A DNA stretch of 55,981 nucleotides, the filler included, from Dugesia japonica (lineage: Eukaryota): assembly GCA_001938525.1 (NCBI GenBank). It is 4 parts of 4 records of this genome, joined end to end, with 100 filler letters (N's around TTAATTAATTAA, not from the genome) between each part and the next. Parts side by side here need not be neighbours in the genome. Positions count along the whole stretch, not along the records: positions 11,800 to 23,479 come from MQRL01632164.1; 3 more parts are not named here. The stretch is one strand, 5' to 3'. Positions 11,877 through 15,391 of the stretch are shown in pieces; position 1 is the stretch's first letter; every line of letters begins with the position of its first letter. The notes beneath the pieces were generated by a model. That model saw only the letters and a program-made list of their open reading frames with translations. It did not search any database and was not told the DNA's origin. The position numbers and the translations under genes are program-made.

Positions 11877-12541
11877 ATGTCTCAGGAAATCCTAGAAGAT
11901 AAACCCGAAGAATCCCTTAAAAAATAGCCAGACTTGGAAAAATATATTTACTAAGATCAAAAATATACAATTACAGATTTAAAAACTAGATTATCAAGTT
12001 TAAGAATTGAAGATTTTGAATCAGATCTTTACTTTATTGATGATAAAATTAAGCATTATAAAAAGATTTATAAAAGATGGTTAAGGTTAGATACTTCAAT
12101 TAGATTTACAGAAATATTAATTGGAACAATTGTTGGAATAACTGGAACTATATTAATTTCTTTAGGAACTTTATGTGTGGGAGGATTAATTCCAATTATT
12201 TTAACAAGTGTAGTTTCTTGTATTCCAGTCATTGGTACTTTGAATTCATCTTTAATAAAAGCAAAAAAGAAAAAGTATAAAAATTTAATTGATGAGTTAG
12301 AAACGGTAAAAAAACAATTATTTTTTTTTCGGCAAAATCTTTATCTGATGATCTTTTAACAGATGAAGAAATATCAATAAGCAAGAATGTGGTAAAACAA
12401 GTTAAAGATTAAATTTCACATGAAAAAATTAAAGAAGTTAAAATTGAAAATGATTTATTAAAGAAACTTGAAGAACAAATCGCGTTAACGCAAACGAAGG
12501 GCAAAAATCAACAGAAAATAATTACTAAATTAAAGAAATAA
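11877..12541 (+). pseudogene. Polinton/adintovirus-associated membrane protein (Gly-rich hydrophobic hairpin + basic coiled coil), copy 1
   Basis: IKHYKKIYKRW...ILIGTIVGITGTILISLGTLCVGGLIPIILTSVVSCIPVIG...KAKKKKYKNL...LSDDLLTDEE. Contains an internal stop and frameshifts. Confidence 0.6.
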
Positions 12542-12682
12542 TTTCTATTTTGAATACTTGAAATTTACCTTTAAAATCCCCCAAAATTACAATTTAATTT
12601 TAATTTAGAAATTGACTCACGTGTTAACCGCTNNNNNNNNNNNNNNNNNNNNNNNNNNNNNNNNNNNNNNNNNNNNNNNNNN

Positions 12683-13070
12683 TATTGGAACAATTGTTGG
12701 AATAACTGGAACTATATTAATTTCTTTAGGAACTTTAGGTGTTGGAGGATTAATTCAAATTATTTTTTACAAGTGTAGTTTCTTGTATTCCAGTTATTCG
12801 TGCTTTGAATTCATCTTTAATAAAAACAAAAAAGAAAAGTATAAAAATTTAATTCATGAATTAGAAACTGTTAAAAATAAATAATTTTTATTTCAACAAA
12901 AAGCTTTAAGTGACGATCTTTTAACAGATGAAGAAATTTCAATAAGCAAAAATATGGTAACACGAGTTAAAGATTTAATTTCACATGAAAAAATTGAAAG
13001 TGATTTATTAAAGAAACTTGAAAATCAACTTAATGAACAACAGAAAGTAATTACTAAATTAAAAAAATAA
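12683..13070 (+). pseudogene. Tandem copy 2 of the same membrane-protein gene (5' part in a gap)
   Basis: Near-identical to 12120-12541 but with different substitutions and indels (KALSDDLLTDEEISISKNMV). Confidence 0.7.
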
Positions 13071-13189
13071 TTTAGAAACCACTTTAAAAAAAAGAAGTTT
13101 TATATATTTACATTTTTTTAAATTTAAAAGTTGTGACCGTGGTCACAGGTTTGTTCTTATTTTAAAAAGTGTCTACTGCAGTAGACAAC

Positions 13190-14990
13190 TTTAGGTTCTT
13201 GTTTGTTTAATTCTTAATTCTTTGAAATTAACAAGTTTTCCCTAATAGTTTATCAAGTCTTAGATGCCATTGATTACACTTTAAACATTTATACTTGTTA
13301 CCATGTGGCCAAGTTTTTATTCCATTATCTTCAATTAATCTTTTGTCGTCGTAACCAGTTAAAGTTATTTTCTTTTGTTCAGCTAATTCTATTTCATTTT
13401 TTCGATTTTAATGAATAATTAGTTCCATATATTTTTTCTTTAGGGTTACTTAAAACTTTATCATATTCTTCCATTCCTATTTTATTAGTTTTAGAAACAT
13501 CTTTATGTTTAGTTTCAATATTTTTATTGTCGCTAATTATATAACTTTTAGCTTTTATAAAATTACATTTAATTATTTCATTATTTAGTTTTTCATCTTT
13601 CATCTCAAATAAATTATTTCCTAATAAACTTGTTAATTTATTTAAATTTTCTTGTCCTTTTATTTCTACAAAAATTGAATCTGTATCTGAATAATGGATT
13701 TTATACTTTCCTGGTATTTATTTATGCATCTGATTATAAATAAAATCAAATATAACTTCTTTTGCATATTCTAAAATAGTAAATCCTATGTATGGGAATT
13801 TATTATATTTTAATTTAGTTTTGTAAAGATGAACTGCTGCTGTTTTGGCTTTGCGAACGCCGCGACTGAAAGAAGCTTCTGAAGGATTTTTCCTGTAAAT
13901 ATTTTACTTGATTTAAAACTAATTTTACTTGTAAATTTTTGATAATCTTTATCATTATCTACAATTTCAATATTACATCTATTTCTAACATTTCTAATGT
14001 TTTTCCATAAAAAGCATTATTTAATAATTTAAAGAATACATCCCCAAAAACATCGTTATTTCTTTTAGTTTCGTTTCTTTGATTGATATTTTATGATATT
14101 TGTTGGCATTTTATATTTTGAATGTATTTTTTTTATTTTCATTCCTAAAGAAAGATACAAATCTAATGTTGATCCTAAAATAATATAATTTTGTTTATCA
14201 AATTGATTCAATGTTAATTTAGTATTTTTCTTGAATAACTTTTTATTAAAGCTTAATTGATATGGTGCCAACATTTCTTTTGTAATATTTAAAGGATATG
14301 GTGCTAATGGAAAGTATTTAGTTTTTTCATGAATTGCTTTTGGATATTCTAAATCAACTTCATAAACATAATTAATATCTTTAGTTGATTTAGTATATTC
14401 TAAATCCTTACATTCATAGATTTCACCAGTTGGTGAAGGTTTTGTCATACAACTTGCATACAAAGAATTCTCGTCTAGATATTTTAAAAATGTTTCTTCT
14501 TTCAAATTTGTCGGTGGAGCTCTATTTTTAATTAATGAAAATAATATATCTCCAACTTGTGCTTTGTTTAATTGTCTAGTTTTATTAAATCTATTATTTG
14601 ATTTTTGATTTCTTTCACCACAAACACCAGAATAACCACCTCTAACTCCCCTTTCATTTTTAATAAATCTATCATAAGTTTTTTTTGTGCATATTTTAAT
14701 TTTACTTGAGTAAATTTCATACCTGCATTCCAAGTTAATCCTGGAGCTGAATAACAATAACTTGGATNNATTTGATAATTATTTAAACATGTTTCTCTAA
14801 AATTTTCAAAGTAATCAGCTAAAATAATTACATCTAGTTTCATGTAATGTAACATATAATCCCATAAATTATAAAAGTTACTAAAATCATTTAAAAATTC
14901 ATTATATTCTTGATCAGTTATTTGTTTTTGTTTTAATATATTATCAAAATCTTGTTTCGATGGAAAATAACCTTCAAATTACCTTTTGGA
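13190..14990 (-). pseudogene. pPolB: Protein-primed family B DNA polymerase (Polinton/Maverick/adintovirus type), fragmented
   Basis: Motifs appear in the correct order: YMKLDVIILADYFENFRETC, SAPGLTW, RGVRGGYS, YLDENSLYASCM, YEVDLEYP, FPLAP, FKLLNNAFYGK (~14002-14035), YIGFTILEYAK, HYSDTDS (~13677-13697), KAKSY, YDDKR, TWPHG. Confidence 0.92.
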
Positions 14991-14999
14991 ATTATAAAG

Positions 15000-15391
15000 T
15001 TTCTTTCTTCTGTAAAAACCCATATTTACATCAAGACCTTTTACATCAACATCTCCTTTATTTATATCAGGAATTCATCCAGATAATTCACCATATTCTT
15101 TTTTACTTGTATTACTAGTTGTAATAAAATTCAACATTGTTGATGATATTCCAAGGTCATTCATTATTTCTACATCCAAATATCCTAAAGCTAATCTCAT
15201 TGATTTAAATAAACTTGGAAACTAATTATTTTATCCTTATGAGCATCAGCAGCTCCAAATTCTAATGTAACTTTAAAATATAATATTGAATTACAAATAT
15301 GTAATGGATTTGTAGATTGTAAAGACTGAAAAACAATATCTCCAGAAGACATTAAATTATTAATTGATCCAGATGAAGGTGAAATTCTCAA
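15000..15391 (-). pseudogene. Putative N-terminal fragment of a Polinton-like major capsid protein
   Basis: LMSSGDIVFQSLQSTNPLHICNSILYFKVTLEF followed by NDLGISSTMLNFITTS...LSG*IPD...NMGFYRRR resembles the N-terminal pattern of Polinton-like double-jelly-roll capsids. It abuts the truncated pPolB. Recognised by eye only. Confidence 0.5.

Follow-up and report, generated by a model that had tools for sequence, protein, structure and literature searches.

Genes and features of the locus

The window analysed here comprises 55,981 nucleotides of DNA, in four parts joined by filler. On translation, the viral region yields broken-up reading frames on the minus strand that contain motifs of family B polymerases, and two hydrophobic ORFs on the plus strand. 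The features identified are listed in Table 1: two copies of a small hydrophobic gene, which converge on the C-terminal half of a protein-primed DNA polymerase of family B (PolB), and a fragment of a double-jelly-roll (DJR) major capsid protein, which abuts the polymerase at its upstream end. Every one of these genes contains stop codons or frameshifts, and neither a functional polymerase nor a functional capsid can therefore be made from this copy.

Table 1. Features of the viral region and its immediate surroundings (positions in the window)
Feature	Position	Strand	Basis and remarks
Assembly spacer	11700–11799		44 N + 12 bases + 44 N; the element's left end falls outside the assembly segment
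Hydrophobic accessory gene, copy 1 (pseudogene)	11877–12541	+	Stops close to the start; a single frameshift and a single later stop
Hydrophobic accessory gene, copy 2	12684–13070	+	5′ part lost in or before N gap 12633–12682; two frameshifts, one stop
Protein-primed PolB, C-terminal half	13294–14975	−	tblastn E 5e-78; codon alignments to P0009 and L013; tree
Capsid-to-polymerase junction, inferred deletion breakpoint	14960–15005	−	One frame on both sides, one stop between
DJR major capsid protein fragment, about residues 80–160 of about 430	14963–15230	−	HMM, hhalign, Pfam; in-frame stops
Likely capsid N-terminus, other frame	15200–15463	−	hhalign E 0.48, collinear with capsid positions 32–64 (about residues 30–63)
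Small inverted-repeat element, MITE-like	15663–15813		29-nt arms, 90% complementary

The polymerase

The gene was compared with its closest relative, P0009, a database protein of 777 amino acids with the Pfam domains DNA_pol_B_2 and Endonuclease_7, and with L013, a 2.9-kb contig that carries PolB alone and was the one contig recovered in a metagenome scan. In frameshift-aware alignments, 259 of 533 aligned codons are identical to P0009 (49%; window 14966–13315; five frameshifts and one stop), and 237 of 541 to L013 (window 14975–13294; five frameshifts and two stops). The largest piece of the gene (14068–14778) has eight relatives among 160 candidates, one cluster of which holds P0009. Of 1.84 billion representatives, 12,436 are related to P0009 itself at E ≤ 0.001. 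Scans of viral contigs with a single PolB piece, and likewise with an alignment of the clade described below, gave no relative, and a PDB search with the clade profile gave no match.

Five motifs, which we take to be Exo III (YMKLD), A (YLDENSLY), B (KLLNNAFYGKT), C (YSDTDS) and the C-terminal YDDKR, follow one another in this order on the minus strand, at positions checked by the alignment to P0009. The first-pass annotation described a complete, ordered set of PolB motifs; the order and the strand are borne out, but the set is not complete, and consists only of Exo III and motifs A–C. The gene begins at about Exo III and is without the 570–780 N-terminal residues of full-length relatives. 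Exo I, Exo II and the whole N-terminal region are absent, with no exonuclease-region motif in the three minus-strand frames of 14980–15700, and the terminal-protein and vOTU domains are missing along with that region.

The capsid fragment and its junction with the polymerase

A capsid HMM was built from seven capsid ORFs of Polinton-like viral contigs, where three equivalent ORFs are identified by Pfam as DJR-like_dom. When 1122 six-frame tiles of the window were searched with it, only two were significant, both over 15230–14963 (E 4.3e-6 and 0.0026), with E 1.4 for the forward tile that ranked next and E 0.46 for the best of the reversed tiles. The fragment aligns by hhalign with capsid positions 81–154 (91.6%, E 8e-7), and Pfam matches it to the start of PF21738 (DJR-like_dom) with E 0.019. 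The capsid-like N-terminal fragment that had been noticed directly upstream of PolB is thus confirmed over 15230–14963, and it does match jelly-roll capsid proteins, whereas the lack of such a match had been set as a possible refutation. A word-based search of the fragment against longer proteins, which is weak evidence, returned 37 candidates, none at E ≤ 10. The adjoining piece in another frame (15463–15200) is likely to be the capsid N-terminus; taken alone, its capsid alignment falls short of significance, it has no Pfam match, and in the Atlas it meets only unrelated bacterial clusters at low recognition.

The capsid match extends to about 15000–14963. With 161 relatives used as queries, 103 of the 144 upstream-frame PolB alignments start at 14966–14978; a further 20 extend above 15000, two of them reaching about 15210 at 25–29% identity, which blurs the breakpoint. 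The junction is accordingly located between about 15005 and 14960, in agreement with the earlier placement at about 14990. No meaning is given to the frame shared by capsid and PolB, since one join in three would be in frame by chance.

The junction lacks about 270 residues of the capsid, along with the N-terminal residues of PolB. The IMG/VR Polinton contigs L014 and L016 have their capsid gene on the same strand as PolB and just upstream of it, and the missing parts are most simply accounted for by one internal deletion. This would have spanned at least 2.5 kb (on L014 coordinates, about 3.5 kb) and fused the capsid front to the back half of PolB. Judging from the L014/L016 layout, it would have taken the C-terminus of the capsid and, from the polymerase, the regions for priming, protease, endonuclease and Exo I/II. 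The suggestion that this is an internally deleted remnant of Polinton/adintovirus type is therefore supported, the junction being best explained in this way.

Other Polinton genes were sought in the window by tblastn with the ORFs of contigs L001–L021. No match was found to integrase, ATPase, protease or penton, in a search that also missed the capsid fragment and is therefore of low sensitivity. Of the 254 inverted pairs in 11800–17032, the 25 longest include no terminal inverted repeat, in a range that excludes the left end of the element, and no target-site duplication was seen around it.

The duplicated hydrophobic gene

Copy 1 has a helical N-terminus, a hydrophobic stretch and a charged coiled tail. 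Its hydropathy (KD19) reaches a maximum of 2.27 over ORF residues 51–99, with peaks comparable to those of Polinton ORFs. The two copies have a mean column identity of 86%, and the encoded residue is unchanged at 102 of 124 codons, so that the duplicated, convergent hydrophobic gene of the first-pass annotation is upheld. The likeness ends at a common stop codon, and the copies differ by in-frame indels of 15 and 21 bases. The dN/dS ratio between them is 0.62 over 124 codons, a value not distinguishable from neutral (Fisher p 0.27), and no purifying selection between the copies is demonstrated by it.

We compared the copies with the membrane ORFs of three Polinton contigs (L014, L015 and L016), combined in an HMM. 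The top four tiles are the hydrophobic copies, with domain E values of 0.005–0.067 for copy 1 and 1.2e-4 for copy 2; the best reversed control has E 2.7. Against the membrane ORF, hhalign gave probabilities of 6% and 38%, the latter for copy 2 (E 3.3e-4). Other searches gave less: pairwise BLAST of the hydrophobic gene against contig L009 found no match, the protein database returned 40 candidates for copy 1, none at E ≤ 0.1 (again a word-based search, and weak evidence), the Atlas offered only ‘hypothetical’ clusters below 0.9, and a scan of viral contigs with the membrane ORF recovered only one of its own inputs. On this moderate support, the pair is likely to be a tandem Polinton accessory membrane gene. 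A match of copy 2 to Pfam UL20 (E 3.5e-4, below cut-off) was rejected as a chance match of hydrophobic sequence.

A membrane gene of the Beta class is named GasderminX by Starrett et al. 2021 (PMC8502044, available text); GasderminX and Cupiennin are accessory genes of that class. In L009, the protein X-like domain described for GasderminX sits in an ORF beside the membrane ORF. Between the converging ends of PolB and copy 2 there are two short, near-perfect palindromes (13135–13190), possibly viral termination signals.

The arrangement of the hydrophobic genes bears on whether the locus derives from one provirus. L014, L015 and L016 each have a single hydrophobic gene, upstream of the capsid gene and on its strand; the present locus has two copies, which converge behind PolB. 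A patchwork of at least two related Polinton copies, brought together by recombination or nested insertion, would explain this difference in gene order, and is also consistent with the N gap between the copies and with a likeness that halts at the common stop and includes in-frame indels, unlike a recent duplication of host DNA. Against this, the ratio of 0.62 is compatible with neutral change, the three tested PolB pieces all fall in one clade (see below), and the order of capsid and then PolB on one strand is also that of L014 and L016. We therefore consider a patchwork unlikely, and a single provirus with one deletion the better account.

Flanking sequence and the integrity of the assembly

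Identical 100-base spacers are found at three places in the window (11700–11799, 23480–23579 and 44735–44834). The contig linker noted earlier at 11744 is therefore real, and the presence of three copies means that sequence to the left of 11800 cannot be assumed to neighbour the element. On the right, 14770–17032 is free of N gaps, spans the junction and runs into the flank containing the MITE-like inverted repeat, which is likely to be host flank rather than a viral terminus. Further on, beyond a gap of 103 N but in the same spacer-bounded segment, there is a lin-54/tesmin-like gene (17949–19150, plus strand) with CXC domains (Pfam TCR, E 3e-12) and introns of about 40–50 bases. An SLC3A2-like gene (28810–29801, minus strand; SLC3A2_N, E 1e-25, and an alpha-amylase domain) marks the assembly as that of an animal, although it lies in a different segment.

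Three pieces to the left of the spacer (2816–2992, 10053–10208 and 10862–10990) show a putative resemblance to SLC44 transporters. They belong to two runs of exon-like pieces on the minus strand (2085–2992 and 9816–10990), in which two hydrophobic pieces may represent the same region, a hint of two paralogues. Pfam gave no support for SLC44 on 48 and a further 8 short ORFs, the PDB gave none on three pieces, and to the right of the element no exon was recognised as matching them. The proposal that the element sits inside an SLC44 intron is thus not upheld: the gene is unconfirmed by Pfam or PDB, no matching exon was recognised at the right, and the spacer breaks the adjacency.

Of 24 listed sequencing runs, eight (from three studies) contain part of 12700–17000, with a best share of 0.39 of words; rows with shares of 0.18 and 0.06 are taken as no evidence, and no RNA run among those listed contains the region. 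Host flank makes up 36% of this interval, near the best share. A share of 0.39 fits either an overall divergence of about 3% or the 36% host flank alone, and the viral part may be absent from the samples.

These observations matter for the possibility that the locus is an artefact of assembly, in which copies of a repeat were wrongly joined, or viral DNA sequenced along with the host was scaffolded to it. The assembly is in fragments and contains numerous runs of N besides the three artificial spacers, and run shares of 0.33–0.39 could come from host flank alone. However, stops and frameshifts are dense in every gene, a sign of long neutral decay that is not expected of a free virus; the GC content of the viral region (22–25%) is like that of the host flanks (24–27%); and the junction contains no gap. 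We consider an artefact very unlikely.

Relationships of the polymerase

A quick IQ-TREE analysis was carried out on 64 rows and 567 of 883 columns, comprising 11 locus PolBs, 50 proteins and the three unjoined pieces from the window. The proteins were P0009 and P0013–P0061, with P0062–P0161 left out; the set was picked by similarity to P0009 and the tree was midpoint-rooted. All three window pieces group with P0009 and P0013 (SH-aLRT 97), within a clade of eight rows (SH-aLRT 100) that also contains P0035, P0020 and L013. The PolBs of the IMG/VR Polinton contigs form a separate branch. Those members of the clade that were looked up carry uninformative names. Since the rows were picked by similarity, with no named element among them, the tree shows a distinct clade rather than an undescribed one. 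A neighbouring branch includes the P0014 cluster, whose 39 near-identical members lie on ENA contigs as long as 3.7 Mb, which suggests a family that has recently expanded in some eukaryote.

All five clade members have Pfam DNA_pol_B_2, and Endonuclease_7 is present in P0009 and P0035. None of six window pieces matches PF03175 singly, and the relatives match it weakly, at 40–73 bits. A weak pfam03175 match fits the Beta class as set out in the available text of PMC8502044, whose PolBs diverge from the pfam03175 type and cluster with the Terrapene exemplar, and on this ground the relic PolB is probably of Beta-adintovirus/group 1 type.

Full-length relatives retain the region that is missing here. 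P0035 aligns with the PolB of the L009/L014 contig, which bears an rve integrase, an A32 ATPase and a DJR capsid, over 830 columns that include the N-terminal region (E 1e-92). Its Cys and His positions there, judged by eye, fit vOTU, and the alignment fits the Polinton TP-vOTU-EXO-PALM layout. This evidence is relevant to a possible origin of the polymerase from a mitochondrial or linear plasmid, with the neighbouring genes unrelated to it. Beta PolBs have been binned with plant and fungal mitochondrial plasmids, according to the available text of PMC8502044, and the rows of our tree include no mitochondrial-plasmid PolB. On the other side, a capsid fragment abuts the polymerase, and P0035 aligns along the whole Polinton N-terminal region with its vOTU-fitting residues, while mitochondrial plasmids are described in the accessible part of PMC11161782 as having neither vOTU nor the TP-vOTU-EXO-PALM layout. 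A plasmid origin is thus largely refuted and highly improbable.

Interpretation and comparison with known elements

The locus contains two hallmarks of Polintons, namely the C-terminal half of a PolB homologous to those of Polinton contigs, and a DJR capsid fragment. We conclude with good confidence that it is a decayed Polinton (Maverick/adintovirus-type) relic, likely of the Beta-adintovirus/group 1 class, likely inserted into the chromosome of an animal, and likely to have lost the stretch between the capsid front and the PolB back half in a single internal deletion. By analogy with the family, its ancestor would have integrated by means of a retrovirus-like integrase, replicated with a PolB primed by a terminal protein, and enclosed its DNA within a capsid of jelly-roll type.

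As described in the available text of PMC8502044, Beta adintoviruses (group 1) have a divergent PolB that matches pfam03175 weakly or not at all, a capsid of DJR type (hexon) and a membrane-type accessory gene, and occur as degraded relics; the present element appears to resemble them in these respects. It differs from them in consisting only of fragments, with integrase, FtsK ATPase, adenain, penton and terminal repeats not found. The same text reports a broken Beta adintovirus in the human genome, on chromosome 7, and a roundworm entry appears among the adintovirus maps in its supplement. The IMG/VR contigs L009/L014, L004/L015 and L016 carry a PolB and a capsid homologous to those of the relic, and a hydrophobic ORF that is likely so.

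In vertebrates, 96% of 3,511 Maverick loci are degraded by stops or frameshifts, and many have no discernible terminal inverted repeats (Barreat and Katzourakis 2021, PMC8097293, available text). Compared by description, the relic is like them in its stops and frameshifts and in having no such repeat seen, whereas its gene architecture differs. Degraded and deleted copies are the commonest form of Polinton, and in this respect the relic is ordinary. The nematode Polintons pPolB1 and pPolB2 (Jeong et al. 2023, PMC10748475, available text) share with the relic's kind of element a DJR capsid and a PolB that is protein-primed and has nuclease insertions. Nematode surveys extend to polymerases of group 2 alone, and the nematode pPolBs described there are all of that group, whereas the relic, compared by description, is apparently Beta/group 1.

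We have considered whether the relic belongs to an undescribed Beta/group 1 Polinton clade, represented so far by just five unnamed sequences (P0009, P0013, P0020, P0035 and L013). Such a clade would have a gene order of its own, with tandem membrane genes convergent on PolB; it would have invaded an AT-rich, short-intron invertebrate lineage without described members of the class, and would possibly be spreading as a deleted, non-autonomous family of capsid-polymerase fusions. The accessible sections of the literature, including bioRxiv 2025.02.07.637071, hold no description of this PolB clade, whose unnamed sequences would be unrecognisable there. We regard the proposal as tentative and on balance doubtful.

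The relic records, as a dated footprint, that a DNA virus infected the germ line of an animal, and adds one more point to the host range of Polintons. If the clade is undescribed and the host lineage is without reported Beta/group 1 elements, it could serve as bait for intact members. The relic alone changes no view, being non-functional and of a kind of fossil that is abundant.

Other observations

Beside the lin-54-like gene there is an intronless ORF of 381 amino acids (19815–20960, minus strand), in a genome with short, frequent introns; it has no Pfam family, and no relative among the viral contigs. An open frame of 329 amino acids at 53730–54719 (plus strand) has no Pfam family above cut-off. 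Decayed transposons of Tc1/mariner type are seen at 4555–5620, 8544–9736 and 49485–50523, the second with inverted arms of 114 nt that are 90% complementary, and 25858–28630 holds long arrays, AT-only and satellite-like, with C strongly skewed over G. Among the viral contigs, L005 combines a PolB related to the class of the relic with a capsid of Sputnik-virophage type (PF21915, E 4e-41), at 3–3839 and 10119–12044, in a hybrid-virophage layout.
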